Positions 6,950 through 27,129 of a DNA stretch of 32,000 bases are shown one piece after another (the first letter of the stretch is position 1; every line of letters begins with the position of its first letter). The stretch lies in the NCBI GenBank assembly GCA_048886185.1, contig JBHLKY010000013.1, positions 82,687-114,686 on the forward strand, in the 5' to 3' direction. The position numbers and the translations under genes are program-made. Source of the DNA: Candidatus Hermodarchaeota archaeon (GTDB lineage Archaea; Asgardarchaeota; Heimdallarchaeia; Hodarchaeales; Hodarchaeaceae). The notes beneath the pieces were generated by a model. The model ran no database searches and had not been told where the DNA came from. It was given only the letters and a program-made list of their open reading frames with translations.

Positions 6950-7876
6950 TTGCAAGAACTTGATATCAGTAAAAATGTAGAGAAGATTTCAAAAAGAATT
7001 ATTCATTTTATTGAAACCTCCAAAGAAGAACGAGGAGTTGAAGGGGTACTAGTTCTGTTTTCTGGATATATGGACTCTACTGTCGTTTCTAAGTTAACAT
7101 TAGAAGCATTAAGTCATGATAATGTAAAATTACTTATTCGTGCTAACAGATATTTTGAACAACAGGACGATATTCTTAAAGCTTCAATTGAATTTTTAGG
7201 AGTCTCGGAAAAAGATATTCTGCGATGTGACATAGAACCAATGCTTAGGAATTTTGGATCAAAAGATCTTATACCTGGCTCTCTTAGAGATATTCCTTCA
7301 CTCTACCAGCCTTTAAGCTATTCGTTGTTGAAGAGTACTGCTAAGAAGGAAATTGAGGGGAAAACTTATGAAATGGTAGGAGAAACAAGCTCTGAGAGAG
7401 AAAGGTGGATTAATAAGACTATAGCTCATAATAAACTTCGATCTCGGTTGCAAATGGCTGTTGCATACTTTTTAGCAGAAACAGAAAATCTCTATCTTGT
7501 TGGTACAATAAATAAAACTGAACTTTCAACAGGCCTATTTACAAAATGGGGACATGGACATTGTGCTGATTTAATGCCTCTTGGAAATCTTTATCGGTCT
7601 CAAATTCTACAACTAGCAGAATATCTTCAAATTCCAGAATCTATCAAAAATCTGTCAAAAGCTGATCTGATGCCTGGCGTGAAAAATAAATACATGTATT
7701 TTTTTGACCTTCCAGCTTTCGATGTTGATAGAATTTTGATTCGTCTTGAACAGGGCATTTCTACAACAGATATAAGTAGTGCTATTGGTGTACCAATTGA
7801 TTTAATAGAAAGAATTAATACGTACTACAATTCTGCTGCTTACACAAGGCAGGCTCCCCTCATACCCAAGTTCTGA
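6950..7876 (+). CDS. nadE: NH3-dependent NAD+ synthetase (NadE)-like protein with strongly diverged catalytic motifs
   Basis: NadE motif order is preserved: SGYMDS (PP-loop SGGxDS), KLRSRLQM, GTINKTE, FTKWGHG, PLGNLYRSQ, ADLMPG. TTG start with GGTG upstream. Confidence 0.8.
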   Translation: MQELDISKNVEKISKRIIHFIETSKEERGVEGVLVLFSGYMDSTVVSKLTLEALSHDNVKLLIRANRYFEQQDDILKASIEFLGVSEKDILRCDIEPMLRNFGSKDLIPGSLRDIPSLYQPLSYSLLKSTAKKEIEGKTYEMVGETSSERERWINKTIAHNKLRSRLQMAVAYFLAETENLYLVGTINKTELSTGLFTKWGHGHCADLMPLGNLYRSQILQLAEYLQIPESIKNLSKADLMPGVKNKYMYFFDLPAFDVDRILIRLEQGISTTDISSAIGVPIDLIERINTYYNSAAYTRQAPLIPKF

Positions 7877-20446: not shown

Positions 20447-21526
20447 TTACAAAGCAAAGCCAAATTTTTCCTCTTTGTACCATGGATTTATATCCAAAAA
20501 GGAACCAAATTTCGCCATTGATTCTGAAAGAGATGTGCCATTTGTTTGAAAACCAAAAGATCTTACTTTCTCACTATTAATCCAAATATCCTGTCCTAAC
20601 TTATCAAACAAGATGGGAATCAGAAATGAGTGTTCCTGAGGTTTCTTTATCTTGCGGATAATACGAGCAGCATAATAAAGTGGTTTAAACAAGAATAAAG
20701 GTACGGAGATAATTGATAAGTCTTTTTTTCGAAGAGCTTGACTTAATTCTTGAACAACTTCACGTAAAGAATGAGTAAAACTCACAAGATTAAACTCTTC
20801 GCCATTTCCCTTACTAAAATCCGAAAAATAGATGATTGCAGAACTTACATCCCTTACATCTACGAGACTAATCTTATCTTTTCCACCACGAGGTAAAGGT
20901 ACAAAATGTCCAATAAACATTCGTGCAAGAACATCGATTGTTGAGCCAGATCCGCCTATGATTCCAGATGGGCGTAAAACTGTGATTAATCTTTCTGGAT
21001 GACATTTTTGATATTTTTGAACCAAAGCTTCTCCTAATGCCTTTGTTAATTCATAATTCTTATTTAACTTAAGATCAATCTCTGTAACTTCAGTAACACC
21101 TTGACATTCATTACCCTTCATGTGGCCATATACAGCAACCGAGGAGAGGTAGATCAGCTTTTTAATTTGGTTTTGATGGAATGCTTGTAAGATTCTTTTC
21201 GTTCCACAGACATTAACATCATAAAGTAGCTCATATGGTTGCCAAAAGTTAAAAATTGCGCCTGAATGAATTAATATGGAATTATGAGGATCTGATACTT
21301 TTGTAAATGCTAAGACATCATCATCACTTCTCAGATCACCTTGGAATATATCAATTCCTTTATTCATACACCATTCCAAAAATCGCTCTCGATGAGGATT
21401 CCCCTCCTTTTTACGCACCAACAATCTAATTTTTTCAGGTATGCTGGCATAAAATGGGTCATTGAGTATTTGATGAACGAGTTCTTGACCGACCAAGCCT
21501 GTACCACCTGTGATTAAGAAAGTCAA
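20447..21526 (-). CDS. Extended SDR, NAD-dependent epimerase/dehydratase family
   Basis: Motifs FLITGGTGLVG, NVCGT, LSSVAVYG, YELTK and LRPSGIIG. TTG start 6 nt after AGGAGGT. Confidence 0.9.
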   Translation of the reverse strand: MTFLITGGTGLVGQELVHQILNDPFYASIPEKIRLLVRKKEGNPHRERFLEWCMNKGIDIFQGDLRSDDDVLAFTKVSDPHNSILIHSGAIFNFWQPYELLYDVNVCGTKRILQAFHQNQIKKLIYLSSVAVYGHMKGNECQGVTEVTEIDLKLNKNYELTKALGEALVQKYQKCHPERLITVLRPSGIIGGSGSTIDVLARMFIGHFVPLPRGGKDKISLVDVRDVSSAIIYFSDFSKGNGEEFNLVSFTHSLREVVQELSQALRKKDLSIISVPLFLFKPLYYAARIIRKIKKPQEHSFLIPILFDKLGQDIWINSEKVRSFGFQTNGTSLSESMAKFGSFLDINPWYKEEKFGFAL

Positions 21527-21633
21527 GAAGAAACCTCCTATTACACTAACATAATTACAGAATTGATACTATTAATAGAATCCCAAAAATAAAGATGAAA
21601 ATGTCTTAAAGACTTCATTATTTTCGGAGGATT

Positions 21634-22662
21634 ATGTTTAATCCTGGAAATATTGGAGCCTTAAAACTCCCAAATCGCTTTGTACGTTCCGCAACAGCTG
21701 AATTTGCAGCAAATGATAACGATGGTACCATAACTAAAGAATATTATACATTGTATTCTAATTTAGCCAAGGGAGGAATAGGGCTTATAATCCAGGGGCA
21801 CCTTTATATTATGGATGAGGGGAAAGCTCATGATAAAATGGCTGGAATTGCCTATGATAGTCATATAGCTGGTCTAAAGCAAATTACTGAAATTGTCCAT
21901 AAAACAAGACCAGGAAGTGTCATTGCTGCCCAGTTAAACCATGGAGGAGCTCATTCGGTGAGTACCAAAACCGCTTCACCCCGAAAAGGTAAAGAAATTA
22001 AAGTGATGAATGAAGAAGACATTGAAAATGTAATCAAGGGATTTCAAAAGGCTGCACTCCGTGCAAAAAAAGCTGGTTATGATGCGGTTCAGATTCACTC
22101 TGCCCATGGATATTTACTTAGCCAATTTCTCTCTAGTAAAACAAATAGGCGAACGGATTCATGGGGTGGCAGTTTAGAGAATAGAGCACAATTTTTGTTA
22201 TCAGTCTATCGTGATATAAGATCAGCTGTTGGAGCTAATTATCCAATACTGGTAAAAATGAACGGATCCGATGACCCTTCAGAAGGCTTTCCTATCGAAG
22301 AAGGTTCCAAAGTAGCTGGTTGGTTAGCTGATGAAGAGCTTGACGCACTTGAAATAAGTGGAATGAAGTCTACACGCCCAGTCAAAAAACAAGATGAGGG
22401 GTACTTTGTAACAACTGGGAGAAGAATCAAGCAGCACATTGCTGACCTACCACTGATTTTAGTAGGTGGACATCGTTCATTAGCTCACATGCAAAAGCTA
22501 AGAGAAGAATTTGTTGATTTTATTTCCCTATGTAGACCCTTTATCAGAGAACCTGATCTTGTACAAAAGTTTCAAGCAGGAAAGGATAGATCTGATTGTA
22601 CATCCTGCAATCGCTGTCTTAAAGAACGGATTGTGACTAAATGTCTAGAGAAAGAAGATTAG
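21634..22662 (+). CDS. NADH:flavin oxidoreductase (Old Yellow Enzyme family)
   Basis: Motifs NRFVRSAT, QLNHGG, AGYDAVQIHSAHGYLLSQFLS..TNRRTD.WGGSLENR and RPFIREPDL, plus C-terminal CTSCNRC. Confidence 0.94.
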   Translation: MFNPGNIGALKLPNRFVRSATAEFAANDNDGTITKEYYTLYSNLAKGGIGLIIQGHLYIMDEGKAHDKMAGIAYDSHIAGLKQITEIVHKTRPGSVIAAQLNHGGAHSVSTKTASPRKGKEIKVMNEEDIENVIKGFQKAALRAKKAGYDAVQIHSAHGYLLSQFLSSKTNRRTDSWGGSLENRAQFLLSVYRDIRSAVGANYPILVKMNGSDDPSEGFPIEEGSKVAGWLADEELDALEISGMKSTRPVKKQDEGYFVTTGRRIKQHIADLPLILVGGHRSLAHMQKLREEFVDFISLCRPFIREPDLVQKFQAGKDRSDCTSCNRCLKERIVTKCLEKED

Positions 22663-23396: not shown

Positions 23397-24236
23397 ATGT
23401 GTCGTTGGTGTGTTGAACATACTGCCCGAAAAATTTGGTATTTAGAACCAGTGAACCATAAATTAGGCACGATTAATCGATTACAGCGATTTTGGGACTG
23501 GTATATTGATATGGGGATTCTTTATGGGACCATTGATGACATTAGTCAAAAGGAAAAACCTTGGGGATTTCCGAAAAAAAATTTCTATAGCTTTTATGCT
23601 AAAAGAATACATGGAGGACAAGTGGTTGCTTCTCTCAAAGAGTCCCTGAAAATCCTCGAAATGAGTCAAGACTTATATCTCACTTATTGTAGTTGTAGAT
23701 ATTCGACGCATTCAGAACACCCAAAACTAAACAAATGTATCTTACTCAACAATGACGCTGAGCAGGCTCGTCGATGGGATGGTAAGGCCAAACTAAAAGG
23801 AAAACCAACAATTGGTACGTTCATTGATATTAACGATGCTAGGGATATTATTGTCAACTCTAGAAAGGAGGAGAAATGTTTTCAAACTGTTCTTTGGAAG
23901 TGGCCTCCTCGGGTCGCGTGTTTATGTAATTGTGATCAGTATTGCGCTTCATGGTGGGCCCCAGAGATTGAATGGGGGCGACTCCCTTCATTCCATCGGT
24001 CTAGAGTAGCTAATCCAGATCGATGCGATAAATGTGGCATGTGTGTAAATTATTGCCATAAAAAGGCATTAATTCTTAATGACGAGAGTGGGCCTCAAAT
24101 TGATCAAGAAAAGTGTTTAGGTTGTGGACTTTGTGTCGAGAATTGTCCTCAAAATGTGTTTACATTGGTACCTCGTAAAGCCATATATGACCGTCAAATA
24201 GGTAAAACTGTTGAATTAATCTCTGAAAGCTCCTAA
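23397..24236 (+). CDS. Multi-cluster iron-sulfur protein (4Fe-4S dicluster at C-terminus)
   Basis: Two ferredoxin motifs CDKCGMCVNYC and CLGCGLCVENCP, plus extra Cys groups MCRWC..H, CSCR and CLCNCDQYC. GGTGA SD upstream. Confidence 0.88.
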   Translation: MCRWCVEHTARKIWYLEPVNHKLGTINRLQRFWDWYIDMGILYGTIDDISQKEKPWGFPKKNFYSFYAKRIHGGQVVASLKESLKILEMSQDLYLTYCSCRYSTHSEHPKLNKCILLNNDAEQARRWDGKAKLKGKPTIGTFIDINDARDIIVNSRKEEKCFQTVLWKWPPRVACLCNCDQYCASWWAPEIEWGRLPSFHRSRVANPDRCDKCGMCVNYCHKKALILNDESGPQIDQEKCLGCGLCVENCPQNVFTLVPRKAIYDRQIGKTVELISESS

Positions 24237-24252
24237 AATTGATGCATAGACG

Positions 24253-26193
24253 ATGGTAAAAGAGATAACAACTGTACAAAAGGTAGAATTTCTTCTCTTA
24301 ATAGCTATTTTTCTCGGTTCTTTTATTCTACTCTTTTTTCAAATAGTACTGTCACCAAAATATGATAAATCCCTTCCAGCAGCTGATTTAGTGGGTCACT
24401 TACCGTTAAGTGCTGCTATTCAGCAACCAACTATCACAAATGATCTTGGAGATCACCCTCTTGAAATTAGGGAAATTTCACAGATTCTTTGGGCTCTCCA
24501 AGGGATAACACACGGTGTCAACAAAAGAACAGTCCCTTCAGCAGGCGCAACATACCCCTTGGAGATTTTTTTAGTACACAAAGGGTCAAGCACATTGAAG
24601 AAAGGGCAATACAAATACTCTCCCCAATATCATAAGTTGAAACTCATTTCTTCCTCATCTAATTGGTCAGAATTACTGCTATCATTCCTTGATGATGATT
24701 ACAAAGCCATATCTAACGTTAGTACCGTCTTTTTAATACTTACTGATTATTCTCGTACAACCAATATATATAGTTCCAATCATTCATTATATGCTTATCG
24801 TGGAATCCAATATGTCCATTTAGAAGTAGGACATGCCATTCAGAATTTTCAACTGCAGCTAGCGTCTCTGAATTTAAAATCACGGATAATTTTCAACTTT
24901 ACCTCCCAAATAATTAAAGATTTTCTCGATTCAACCTTGGATCCCATGGTAGTGTTACCTGTTGGAATTGATAGAGTTTCTTCCCCATCTCCTTTAAGAT
25001 TAAAGCAGAATCTCTCTTGTAACAAAGAAGAAATGACAGTTGAGCAAGCCATTGCGAAACGAAAGTCCGTAAGGGACTACTTAGATGGAAAAATTCCACT
25101 GCTGGTCATCTTGAATATCTTGAATGACAGCATAAATATTCCATATTTAACCAAAGATAATTTGCATCTTGATTTTCGTTTTGTTGCTGGTGAAATTGGA
25201 GGATTGTCAAATGGATCTTATCGATTTCAACTTGAAAATCACACTCTTACTCTAATAGAACTAGGGGATTTCCGAACTGAACTGAGAGAAGCGGGTTTAA
25301 ATCAAATAATGATTGAAAAAGCTCAATGTGACATTGTTATCTCTGTGAATACAACTTGGATTAAAGAACAACTTGATCCACTACTTTATCATCGGATAAT
25401 GATGTACAATATTGGTATGTTGGCTCAAAATATCTATTTAAAATGTGCAGCATATGGTTTAGGAACTGTTGTAGTTGGGGCTTTATATGAAGGCAAGACT
25501 TCTCGAGTGATAGATATTCCTAACACTCATACTCCGATCTATATCATACCAATCGGGTTAACGCCAGAATTTTTTGAAAATAAAAGCATAATTTATATTC
25601 CATTAACTAATTTGGCTAGGAATATCGGACTACTGTCCTATATCCCCTTCTATTTTTGCCTGTATCTTTCTCTTCCAATATTAAGACAAAGAATTAGTAA
25701 AAAAATGCGTTGGATACATTGTCTTAGTGGTATTATCCCTTTATTGGGTGTTTTTTTTCACTTTATGGTTATTCATGGCCATGTTCGGGATCTCTGGGAT
25801 TTTATAAACCTAAATTCCTATTTTAGTGCTTTGATTCGCTTTGTAACTAAAATTCTTTTGTTTCCAATAACTAGATATGATATAGGGATTTACTTGGCAA
25901 ATCTGAATATCCTATTAGGATTTTCAGCTGGTGTAACTGGAATTATTGTTGGATTCAAGATAATCAAGAACAAAAAGCTGGTTAAAAAGATTCATAAATA
26001 CTCCATCTTTGGTATAATCTTCTTTATGATTATTCATGTTTTACTGAATAGAACAATGGTCGTCATCGACCCTATTGTTTTCCTTTTACTGAATGTATTG
26101 ACAATTGATCTTTTTTTCATAATATATTTATATCCTAAATTAGCTACAGACATTTTTAAAAGAAAGAAGACAACATCTTCATTGTTTCCTTAA
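24253..26193 (+). CDS. Membrane-anchored tandem SagB/ThcOx-type nitroreductase fused to a C-terminal cytochrome-b/ferric-reductase-like membrane domain
   Basis: N-terminal TM helix. Domain 1 has RTVPSAGATYPLE and EVGHAIQN. Domain 2 has AIAKRKSVR and GLGTVVVGA. The last ~200 aa form about five TM helices with His pairs H489/H503 and H581/H595. Confidence 0.85.
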   Translation: MVKEITTVQKVEFLLLIAIFLGSFILLFFQIVLSPKYDKSLPAADLVGHLPLSAAIQQPTITNDLGDHPLEIREISQILWALQGITHGVNKRTVPSAGATYPLEIFLVHKGSSTLKKGQYKYSPQYHKLKLISSSSNWSELLLSFLDDDYKAISNVSTVFLILTDYSRTTNIYSSNHSLYAYRGIQYVHLEVGHAIQNFQLQLASLNLKSRIIFNFTSQIIKDFLDSTLDPMVVLPVGIDRVSSPSPLRLKQNLSCNKEEMTVEQAIAKRKSVRDYLDGKIPLLVILNILNDSINIPYLTKDNLHLDFRFVAGEIGGLSNGSYRFQLENHTLTLIELGDFRTELREAGLNQIMIEKAQCDIVISVNTTWIKEQLDPLLYHRIMMYNIGMLAQNIYLKCAAYGLGTVVVGALYEGKTSRVIDIPNTHTPIYIIPIGLTPEFFENKSIIYIPLTNLARNIGLLSYIPFYFCLYLSLPILRQRISKKMRWIHCLSGIIPLLGVFFHFMVIHGHVRDLWDFINLNSYFSALIRFVTKILLFPITRYDIGIYLANLNILLGFSAGVTGIIVGFKIIKNKKLVKKIHKYSIFGIIFFMIIHVLLNRTMVVIDPIVFLLLNVLTIDLFFIIYLYPKLATDIFKRKKTTSSLFP

Positions 26194-26196
26194 ATT

Positions 26197-27129
26197 ATGG
26201 AGTTAGTTATTTTGCCTCATATATCGCGAAAAAGAATTGCGATCTGTTGTCATGGATTCTTGGGAGTTCCTGAAATGATGCATGAGGTCGAAACTACTCT
26301 CAGTAAGGATCCTTTTGATCAGGTTTATGATAGAGTATTCAACATCTCATATTATAGTTCCAAATATGGTATAAACTTTAGTCAACCTTTTGATTTAAAA
26401 ACCCCAATATATGAGAAAACCACAAACCAAACACTTGCACATAATTTCTTGAATCAAATATATTTCTGTCTAAAGGATTATAGGGAGGAAATTAACATTG
26501 ACATCTATGCTCACTCAATGGGTGGATTAGTAACACGCAGTATGGTAAAATATCTATCAGAGGAAAGAGATGATGGTATTTGGATTAAAAATGGAATAAT
26601 CAGGAAAATTTTTCTATTGGGAACTCCAAATCATGGAACCAGATTATCCCAACGCTCTATAGATATCCCCATAGATATCTTGATGACAGGGTTAAATCTC
26701 ATGTTTGAGCTTCCAGATGGTCTCACATCTGATGATCTACAACTCTTCAAATCCCAATTCATGCAAATGGTACCAAACTCCACTTTTTTAAGACAACTAA
26801 ATCAATCCTCAAAAAGTATCGAAGAACTCATTACATGGGTCACAGTAAGAGGATTATCGTGGATAAATCAGCTTGGATGGTTACCTGTAGTGTGGCAGCC
26901 ATTCTTGTTCAGGAAATTCTGGGTTGATGGTCATTTCCCATTTTTCCACGTTGGGATTATTCCTAATGATGGATTGGTTGATGCTAAACGAGTACCTTTA
27001 AAATTTGCCAAAAATCTCACTGTTCCATCGGCAACTCACATGGATCTCTTGTGTTGGAAATCTAAAAAGTCTGGAAGACAAGTCTTGGATATACTTAAAC
27101 CAATTATTATGGTTAATGGGAAAAACTAA
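26197..27129 (+). CDS. Alpha/beta hydrolase, lipase/PGAP1/DUF676-like
   Basis: Motifs CHGFLG, AHSMGG (Ser), LGTPNHGT, NDGLV (Asp) and ATHM (His). Confidence 0.88.
   Translation: MELVILPHISRKRIAICCHGFLGVPEMMHEVETTLSKDPFDQVYDRVFNISYYSSKYGINFSQPFDLKTPIYEKTTNQTLAHNFLNQIYFCLKDYREEINIDIYAHSMGGLVTRSMVKYLSEERDDGIWIKNGIIRKIFLLGTPNHGTRLSQRSIDIPIDILMTGLNLMFELPDGLTSDDLQLFKSQFMQMVPNSTFLRQLNQSSKSIEELITWVTVRGLSWINQLGWLPVVWQPFLFRKFWVDGHFPFFHVGIIPNDGLVDAKRVPLKFAKNLTVPSATHMDLLCWKSKKSGRQVLDILKPIIMVNGKN

Follow-up and report, generated by a model that had tools for sequence, protein, structure and literature searches.

We analysed a window of 32,000 nucleotides (nt) from Candidatus Hermodarchaeota archaeon (GenBank assembly GCA_048886185.1, contig JBHLKY010000013.1, positions 82,687 to 114,686 of the forward strand; the coordinates below are those of the window unless a locus is named), and in it a gene whose product joins a tandem of nitroreductase (NTR) domains to a membrane module with four invariant histidines. 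The window is AT-rich, with a G+C content of ∼35%, and the host genome (4.84 Mb in 75 contigs, 96% complete) contains the gene in single copy, as judged by a genome search. The open reading frame (ORF) at 24253..26193 on the forward strand has an ATG start and encodes 646 amino acids (aa) before the stop codon. It begins 16 nt past a gene for a ferredoxin-domain protein and ends 3 nt short of a gene for an alpha/beta hydrolase (Table 1). A preliminary description, made from the letters of the stretch, had placed here an ORF with two NTR domains, two H-x13-H pairs, basic loops and a KRKK tail, and all of these lie where it put them. Among public sequencing runs, the stretch is listed for DNA runs from sediment and estuary only, and for no RNA run.

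The protein runs from an N-terminal transmembrane helix (TM1) through a tandem NTR pseudo-dimer to a five-helix membrane module carrying the paired histidines. An AlphaFold2 model built on an alignment of 64 sequences (pLDDT 88.7, pTM 0.84) and hydropathy agree on a single N-terminal helix at residues 7–32, followed by a soluble region at ∼40–441. From residue 451 the model has a short amphipathic stretch and then helices at 483–507, 541–567, 574–598 and 607–643. Counted over the whole protein in this model, the helices that bear the histidines are the third and the fifth.

Each of these two helices carries one H-x13-H pair, formed by H489 and H503 on the first (codons 25717–25719 and 25759–25761) and by H581 and H595 on the second (25993–25995 and 26035–26037). 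The spacing of 14 residues corresponds to ∼21 Å along a helix. The basic stretches RQRISKKMRWIH and KNKKLVKKIH stand before the two pairs, and the C-terminal tail has the sequence KRKK. In alignments of 28, 64 and 67 sequences, these four histidines are the sole invariant columns in the C-terminal ∼200 residues, a region in which identity to the query falls as low as 16% and the mean column identity over 67 aligned C-terminal domains is 39%. If positions are taken as independent, the chance that four random invariant columns would all be histidine, given 6 histidines among 202 residues, is ∼2 in 10 million. The four had been put forward as haem ligands from the query alone, and their invariance in 64–67 sequences bears out the expectation that homologues would conserve them. 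Three further residues, H508, G509 (25777–25779) and N599, are each kept in at least 90% of members. H508 lies in the stretch IHGH, 5 residues past the putative outer ligand H503, and recalls the extra outer histidine, His119, that sets NOX apart from FRE (PMC3591440), although its spacing is off by one.

We then asked which known families the module resembles in sequence. Three Pfam families matched members of the 64-sequence set, in every case below the curated threshold: DUF4405 matched 31 at E ≤ 0.1 (best 1.7e-4), Ni_hydr_CYTB matched 11, and Ferric_reduct matched 8 at E ≤ 0.1 (best 0.002; cut-off 28 bits). All sub-threshold Pfam matches of the module fall within one clan of di-haem membrane cytochromes. 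The second His helix also carries the longer pattern H-x13-H-x3-N, as IH(581)...IIH(595)VLLN(599), and the same pattern is found in proteins scoring above the DUF4405 cut-off in other Asgard genomes. When the module was compared by hhalign with nine Asgard DUF4405 sequences, the small alignment gave an E of 1.2e-4 and a probability of 54.7% over 55 columns, and paired H581, H595 and the conserved N599. True DUF4405 proteins are scarce in Asgard archaea, being present in 9 of 301 genomes and mostly as two-helix short forms. A DUF4405 protein has been purified and shown to contain haem b by pyridine haemochromagen, and its model, with six TM helices and four histidines at the centre, resembles MsrQ and PepSY-like cytochromes (10.1101/2024.03.13.584918). 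In the ferric-reductase superfamily the four histidines lie on TM3 (101 and 115 in NOX2, ∼13 apart) and TM5 (209 and 222, 12–13 apart), and hold an inner and an outer haem (PMC3591440); the module shows the same pattern of histidines.

Searches for relatives of the module outside the family returned little. Its profile had no match at E ≤ 10 among the sequences of the PDB, and no sequence likeness to b561 or Dcytb was detected. A phmmer search of 1.8 billion representatives gave 13 matches with no clearly stand-alone relative among them; most are full-length proteins of the family or fragments, and one (P0103, matched in ten stretches) looks like a repeat artefact. Among proteins of 100–403 aa, the profile found one truncated family member only.

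The fold points in the same direction as the sub-threshold matches. Modelled as a domain alone, the module has a pLDDT of 91.3, and in an exhaustive VIA comparison 10 of the top 14 structures were haem-binding four- or six-helix bundles. The Z scores were 12.3 for Dcytb (157 residues aligned), 12.0 for b561, 10.6 for STEAP1, 10.5 for NOX5, 10.3 for STEAP4, 10.1 for a designed di-haem bundle, 9.5 for NOX2, 9.4 for DUOX1 and 9.1 each for cytochrome b6 and CybB; values of 9–12 are within the range that helical bundles reach by chance, and we place weight on the enrichment of haem proteins among the matches, not on the scores. A search of the ESM Atlas by shape and by features gave no usable match. 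Taken together, sequence and fold support the view that the module is a distant relative of the di-haem b families.

The VIA alignments to Dcytb, b561 and NOX2 start at chain residue 32–37, which in each of these proteins is presumably past the first helix. The five helices of the module would therefore correspond to TM2–TM6, and the N-terminal helix of the protein to TM1. A complex prediction with residues 1–45, the module and two haems gave an ipSAE of 0.58, which is weak, compared with 0.00 for the best control, with contact agreement of at least 77% between runs and a partner pLDDT of at least 71; we take this as a hint, not as evidence. From the models, we read the N-terminal helix as the probable TM1 of a ferric-reductase-type bundle of six helices. 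Because the helix is read in this way, the NTR tandem is probably better viewed as an insertion in the outer TM1–TM2 loop than as a fusion to a cytochrome. The earlier picture of a tandem tethered at both ends is kept; the term ‘fusion’ gives way to that of a loop insertion.

The distribution of charge across the 64 members is asymmetric. Loops 476–489 and 570–582 have mean net charges of +5.5 and +4.2 and are positive in 64/64 members; the means for loops 510–547 and 597–606 are −0.75 and +0.3, and those for the N-terminus, the region after TM1 and the C-terminus are +1.6, −1.2 and +1.3 respectively. With the positive-inside rule, this pattern would put both termini and both basic loops in the cytoplasm, and consequently set H489 and H581 close to the inner side of the membrane, H503 and H595 close to its outer side, and the flavin tandem outside. 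N-x-S/T sequons offer a second measure of sidedness. The ectodomain contains 10, compared with 3.1 ± 1.6 in composition-preserving shuffles, of which 1 in 1000 reach 10, and among ORFs of 250 aa or longer in the genome its sequon level ranks at the 97th percentile. The sequons at 137, 155, 329 and 366 are kept in 59–69% of members, and N599, in a predicted outer loop, opens a sequon in 37 of the 64. Per 100 aa the sequon count is 2.39 here, compared with 0.41 and 0 in the two soluble cytoplasmic NTR paralogues that the genome encodes. The surface proteins of archaea are N-glycosylated, as the present protein may be, and the sequon excess supports an external flavin domain independently of charge. 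The outward-facing flavin domains of the preliminary description, argued there from the loops of one protein, are thus supported by loop charges across the family and by sequon enrichment.

The same data bear on an inverted topology, in which the NTR tandem would be cytoplasmic, take NAD(P)H and send electrons outward through the haems, as NOX does. Nitroreductases are usually cytoplasmic flavin mononucleotide (FMN) proteins, and neither ApbE nor a twin-arginine (Tat) signal is there to account for an external flavoprotein, which speaks for such an arrangement. It would, however, put the two most basic loops outside the cell in all 64 members, and would leave the excess and the conservation of sequons unexplained, including that of the N599 sequon, which would share its side of the membrane with the flavin domain. 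We consider it improbable.

Pfam PF00881 recognises two nitroreductase stretches in the soluble region (E 3e-24), and residues 34–438 superpose on the solved tandem nitroreductase 3eo7_A with a VIA Z of 35.2 and an rmsd of 2.6 Å over 360 residues. Each lobe resembles single nitroreductases and the SagB-type oxidases ThcOx, McbC and BmdC, and the VIA matches of domain 1 (8cqs, 3hj9, ThcOx, McbC and BmdC) have Z scores of 18–24. The invariant residues of domain 1 are R92, PSAG(A)TYP at 95–102, and E191-x-G-H194-xxx-N198. Y173 is also invariant, and it is preceded by Ile in this protein and by Arg in most other members; this position may be the counterpart of the catalytic Lys-Tyr pair that lies beside the flavin in McbC and BcerB. 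Domain 2 has the invariant residues R270-K-S272-x-R274-D-Y276 (nt 25060–25080), which contain the classical FMN-phosphate motif RxSxR. Domain 1 is without this motif, which has been lost at ∼54–64, in the stretch aligned to LRKSTRE of 3hj9. Because RxSxR is present in lobe 2 alone and PSAG(A)TYP in lobe 1 alone, a single composite FMN site, at most one intact, is expected from the sequence.

The SagB model of NCBIfam, TIGR03605, matches lobe 1 at 72–232 with 138.1 bits, above its cut-off of 78.4, and the homologues are named ‘SagB family peptide dehydrogenase’ by NCBI and JGI. Read literally, these names would make the protein an azoline dehydrogenase of a thiazole/oxazole peptide pathway (ribosomally synthesised and post-translationally modified peptides, RiPP). 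There is no YcaO cyclodehydratase in the 96%-complete genome, nor any YcaO or RiPP-type neighbour in nine homologue loci, and the domain is predicted to lie outside the cell, joined to a cytochrome-like module. We therefore regard a role in such a pathway as very improbable, despite the strength of the match.

On balance, we think it likely that the protein is a self-contained transmembrane flavocytochrome b, with a six-TM di-haem bundle, an external NTR pseudo-dimer holding a single FMN, and an outward flow of electrons. The six TM helices would form a bundle of the ferric-reductase/DUF4405 type, in which a stack of two haems b would span the membrane, one held by H489 and H581 on the cytoplasmic side and the other by H503 and H595 on the outer side, and the outward TM1–TM2 loop would have grown into the pseudo-dimer with its one intact FMN site. 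Electrons from a donor inside the cell, which might be a ferredoxin-like protein, a flavin reductase or quinol, would pass to the inner haem, the outer haem and then the external FMN, which would act on an extracellular substrate. Such a protein would be an ecto-reductase in which haems take the place of NAD(P)H as the reductant of the flavin. The order of domains, the invariant histidines, the likeness in fold, the asymmetry of charges and sequons and the limitation to Asgard archaea are what the analysis shows. We infer the binding of haem b and FMN, and the topology, from sequence and models, and the outward direction from the analogy with NOX, FRE, STEAP, MsrQ, Dcytb and DUF4405 systems.

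The main rival to outward flow keeps the architecture and reverses the current: an external SagB-like dehydrogenase would oxidise an extracellular substrate, for example a peptide-derived one, and the haems would deliver the electrons to the quinone pool or to a cytoplasmic acceptor and, in anoxic sediment, re-oxidise the flavin in place of O2. Domain 1 has as its nearest named relatives enzymes that oxidise their substrates (SagB, by the above-cut-off TIGR03605 match, and ThcOx, McbC, BmdC and AlbA), and NAD(P)H is not available outside the cell. Consistent with this, the organism comes from sediment metagenomes and its cultured relatives are anaerobic peptide degraders (10.1101/2025.02.26.640444). 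Nevertheless, the characterised modules of the ferric-reductase, DUF4405, MsrQ and b561 types all work outward (PMC3591440; 10.1101/2024.03.13.584918), the homologue loci contain no linked genes that would supply a substrate, and the sequence itself does not determine the haem potentials. We judge inward flow to be unlikely, though it deserves more attention than any of the other alternatives to the ecto-reductase.

Several results weigh against an outward di-haem flavocytochrome, in addition to VIA scores of a size that chance can give. No haem family model reaches its curated Pfam cut-off with the module: the query protein itself has no Ferric_reduct (PF01794) match, and DUF4405 (PF14358) scores 18.8 bits with the whole protein, 20.1 with the domain alone and 23.3 in the genome scan, compared with a cut-off of 26.7. 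When the module was compared with PDB structures by Foldseek, no match had E ≤ 0.001; SpNOX (8qt6) and FdnI (1kqf_C) had the highest TM-scores, 0.46 and 0.43, neither of them significant. The homologue loci have no conserved partner gene for either donor or substrate. A search of the 96%-complete genome detected no ApbE, and the protein lacks a twin-arginine signal, so that an external FMN would need non-covalent loading after export, which is unusual; among the biological objections to an external flavoprotein, these two absences weigh most. Nor did that genome yield HemB, HemC or ferrochelatase, which suggests haem uptake or an unrecognised pathway. The claim that the membrane part is a haem-b-type domain had been coupled to the expectation of hidden Markov model (HMM) matches. 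What speaks for the claim is the recurrence of sub-threshold matches to one clan, together with the likeness in fold; the HMM check itself reached no curated cut-off.

The lack of a curated haem match would suit a simpler reading, in which the membrane part is a mere anchor, or a sensor or transport domain, its four histidines are metal-binding or structural, and the flavin enzyme acts alone. So would the existence, in other Asgard lineages, of a ∼430-aa short form that is without the module and has no module gene adjoining. This reading has to contend with invariant histidines arranged as two H-x13-H pairs on alternate helices, inner and outer in register, which is the bis-His signature of di-haem proteins, with haem proteins as the top structural matches, and with the H-x13-H-x3-N pattern held in common with haem-binding DUF4405. 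We give it little credence.

As to the supply of cofactors, the genes of the genome include those for COX1 (E 1e-134), a cytochrome b561-type protein and many enzymes of the UbiA family, and measurements on a cultured Hodarchaeales strain showed haem B (10.1101/2025.02.26.640444). COX1, the b561-type protein and the haem B of the cultured relative together indicate that haem proteins are in use. On contig C1, a span of 25 kb with genes at 21449–22207, 25968–26585 and 45387–46727 contains COX1, the b561-type protein and a UbiA-family gene.

The protein looks self-contained, because the genes around it are not conserved, and its cytoplasmic donor does not appear to be set by gene order. The ferredoxin and hydrolase genes recur in close, fully syntenic relatives only (L005). 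Distant loci have unrelated neighbours, and neither gene is adjacent there. An operon in which the Fe-S protein and the hydrolase would be partners of the flavocytochrome was considered and dropped, because the Fe-S gene is gone from the equivalent spot in the syntenic locus L015 (53% identity) and neither gene is adjacent in distant members. The upstream ferredoxin-domain protein is a possible cytoplasmic donor, though not a conserved partner. Its 200-aa N-terminal part has no Pfam match and contains Cys in three clusters, CxxC close to its beginning, CxC, and CxCxCxxxC, which may form further metal centres. In the downstream hydrolase there are 6 N-x-S/T sequons, or 1.94 per 100 aa, and no evident signal peptide or TM helix. 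At the locus of a distant member of 26% identity (L007:1442–2925 and 7023–7742), a Fre-like NAD_binding_1 gene adjoins, and AhpC/redoxin and DsbD_TM genes lie a few genes upstream; these redox-rich surroundings may hint at a cytoplasmic donor in that lineage.

Table 1. Features of the flavocytochrome-like gene and its two neighbours, in window coordinates.
Feature	Position	Strand	Basis
Upstream gene, soluble protein (279 aa) with a 2x[4Fe-4S] ferredoxin domain at its C-terminus	23397..24236	+	Pfam Fer4 families
Whole gene, 646 aa: TM1, NTR ectodomain and di-His module	24253..26193	+	ORF, AlphaFold2 model
TM helix 1, residues 7–32, N-terminus predicted inside	24271..24348	+	Hydropathy; model pLDDT ∼95; family charges
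Nitroreductase/SagB-type domain 1, residues ∼40–243	24370..24981	+	TIGR03605, invariant columns, VIA matches
Low-confidence linker between NTR lobes, residues 244–258	24982..25026	+	pLDDT <50; length varies in alignment
Nitroreductase domain 2, residues ∼259–441	25027..25575	+	Pfam PF00881 at 267–435, invariant columns
Five-helix membrane module, residues 451–643, proposed TM2–TM6	25603..26181	+	Domain model, structural matches, sub-threshold Pfam, hhalign
First His helix, H489 (predicted inner) to H503 (predicted outer), both invariant	25717..25761	+	Alignments
H508, fifth conserved His, predicted outer helix end	25774..25776	+	Kept in at least 90% of members
Second His helix, H581 (predicted inner) to H595 (predicted outer), both invariant, then N599	25993..26049	+	Alignments
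Downstream gene, 310-aa alpha/beta hydrolase (DUF676/DUF7379)	26197..27129	+	Pfam

A word-indexed search found 95 relatives of the protein, the full-length ones having 595–679 aa, and those that are named come nearly all from Asgard metagenome-assembled genomes, under the labels Heimdallarchaeota, Hodarchaeota/Hodarchaeales, Kariarchaeaceae, Hermodarchaeota, Thorarchaeota and Promethearchaeota. Over 400 Asgard genomes the module profile matched 40, including 15 of the 21 in the window's own genus and members of scattered families. The strong matches lie in frames of ∼640–675 aa, save one that is ended by a contig edge, and the fused architecture therefore recurs. The family is confined to Asgard archaea, chiefly to lineages labelled Heimdallarchaeia or Hodarchaeales. 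The short form found in other Asgard lineages (P0062, P0068, P0074 and P0076; 420–450 aa) consists of the N-terminal anchor and the NTR tandem, ending exactly where the module would start. No module gene stands beside it at the locus L009:5001–6269, and it may represent the ancestral state or use a separate membrane partner.

Weaker matches to the module profile in other Asgard families are different proteins, with other extracytoplasmic domains. Proteins of ∼400 aa (L011:1840–3042, + strand; L012:1776–2990, − strand) have a signal or anchor helix, a ∼190-aa ectodomain without a Pfam match and the five-helix module. In these, the inner histidine of the second His helix is missing, with Thr aligned in its place and Gln-Gln just after, a substitution of the kind described for YedZ and STEAP (PMC3591440). 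They are followed by an overlapping gene of the CcsA type for cytochrome c assembly (L011:2978–3514 and L012:1373–1843; PF01578, E 2e-16) and, past it, by a gene for a NuoE-like 2Fe-2S ferredoxin. A protein of 546 aa at L014:686–2326 (+ strand) has an anchor helix, an ectodomain that starts with a CxxCH haem-c motif, a module with H-x13-H and H-x12-H, and a cytoplasmic double zinc ribbon. These wider relatives match Ferric_reduct over its full length at weak E values of 0.01–0.05. All of this fits a module that acts as a reusable electron-transfer cassette, combined with a range of extracytoplasmic domains in settings related to haem.

The redox and syntrophic physiology of Heimdallarchaeia and Hodarchaeales is central to models of eukaryote origin and is poorly understood, and it is not clear what supplies electrons to the haem proteins of cultured strains (10.1101/2025.02.26.640444). 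If the protein does bind haem and FMN, it would provide a simple model, in a single gene, of how electrons are carried outward or inward in these archaea, correct a widespread misannotation as SagB peptide dehydrogenase, and be a case of non-covalent use of an extracellular flavin without ApbE. A bolder view would see here an inside-out analogue of NADPH oxidase, of Asgard origin, that sends cytoplasmic reducing power directly to an external flavin, with the reuse of the cassette marking an unrecognised Asgard system for extracellular electron transfer. We hold this to be doubtful; were it true, Hodarchaeales-type cells, close archaeal kin of eukaryotes, would have a route by which to reduce extracellular acceptors or feed syntrophs without multihaem c cytochromes.

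Transmembrane flavocytochromes b (NOX, FRE, STEAP, MsrQ and DUF4405 systems) are standard carriers of electrons across membranes. To our knowledge, the flavin of characterised fused flavocytochromes b is always cytoplasmic, whereas in the present protein the flavin enzyme is apparently external and in one chain with the cytochrome. A search of the literature on nitroreductases with Hodarchaeales, DUF4405 or ferric reductase domains found no description of this architecture, and no characterised protein that has it came to light, in keeping with the lack of precedent remarked on at the outset.

Among known systems, the ferric reductase superfamily (NOX, FRE, YedZ/MsrQ and STEAP; PF01794) shares with the proposed structure six TM helices, two histidines each on the third and fifth helix, 13 apart, an inner and an outer haem b, both termini inside, and a flavin as the next redox centre. 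STEAP1, STEAP4, NOX5, NOX2 and DUOX1 are among the structural matches of the module (Z 9.4–10.6). NOX and FRE differ in having a cytosolic FAD/NADPH domain after TM6, in place of an FMN-type NTR pseudo-dimer in the outer TM1–TM2 loop. The present chain ends ∼15 residues beyond its last helix and has no C-terminal cytosolic FAD/NADPH dehydrogenase domain like that of the long forms of NOX and FRE. The eukaryotic proteins b561 and Dcytb, which are six-TM di-haem electron carriers, give the best structural matches. The b561 proteins carry one histidine on each of four consecutive helices, whereas two histidines on each of two helices, as here, is the pattern of ferric reductases and DUF4405.

The tandem nitroreductases of the SagB/ThcOx type (Ava_2154, 3eo7; ThcOx, 5lq4) likewise have two lobes per chain, one of which keeps RxSxR. 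They are soluble cytoplasmic proteins, unlike the tandem described here, which is tethered to the membrane at both ends, predicted to be outside, and has no YcaO partner. The DUF4405 cytochromes, which occur in bacterial flavinylation-associated electron transfer and as FezC of the ferrosome, share the H-x13-H-x3-N pattern and the six-TM, four-His design, and a DUF4405 haem-b protein has been proposed to feed an extracytosolic flavoprotein (10.1101/2024.03.13.584918). In the bacterial systems, where DUF4405 is described in genomic association with apbE and a flavinylated partner, that flavoprotein is separate and flavinylated by ApbE, whereas here the flavin domain is fused to the cytochrome-like module and has the nitroreductase fold, in a genome where ApbE was not found. 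The design is thus near in logic to the systems that pair DUF4405 with flavinylated proteins, and is a mirror image of NOX; it introduces no new principle.

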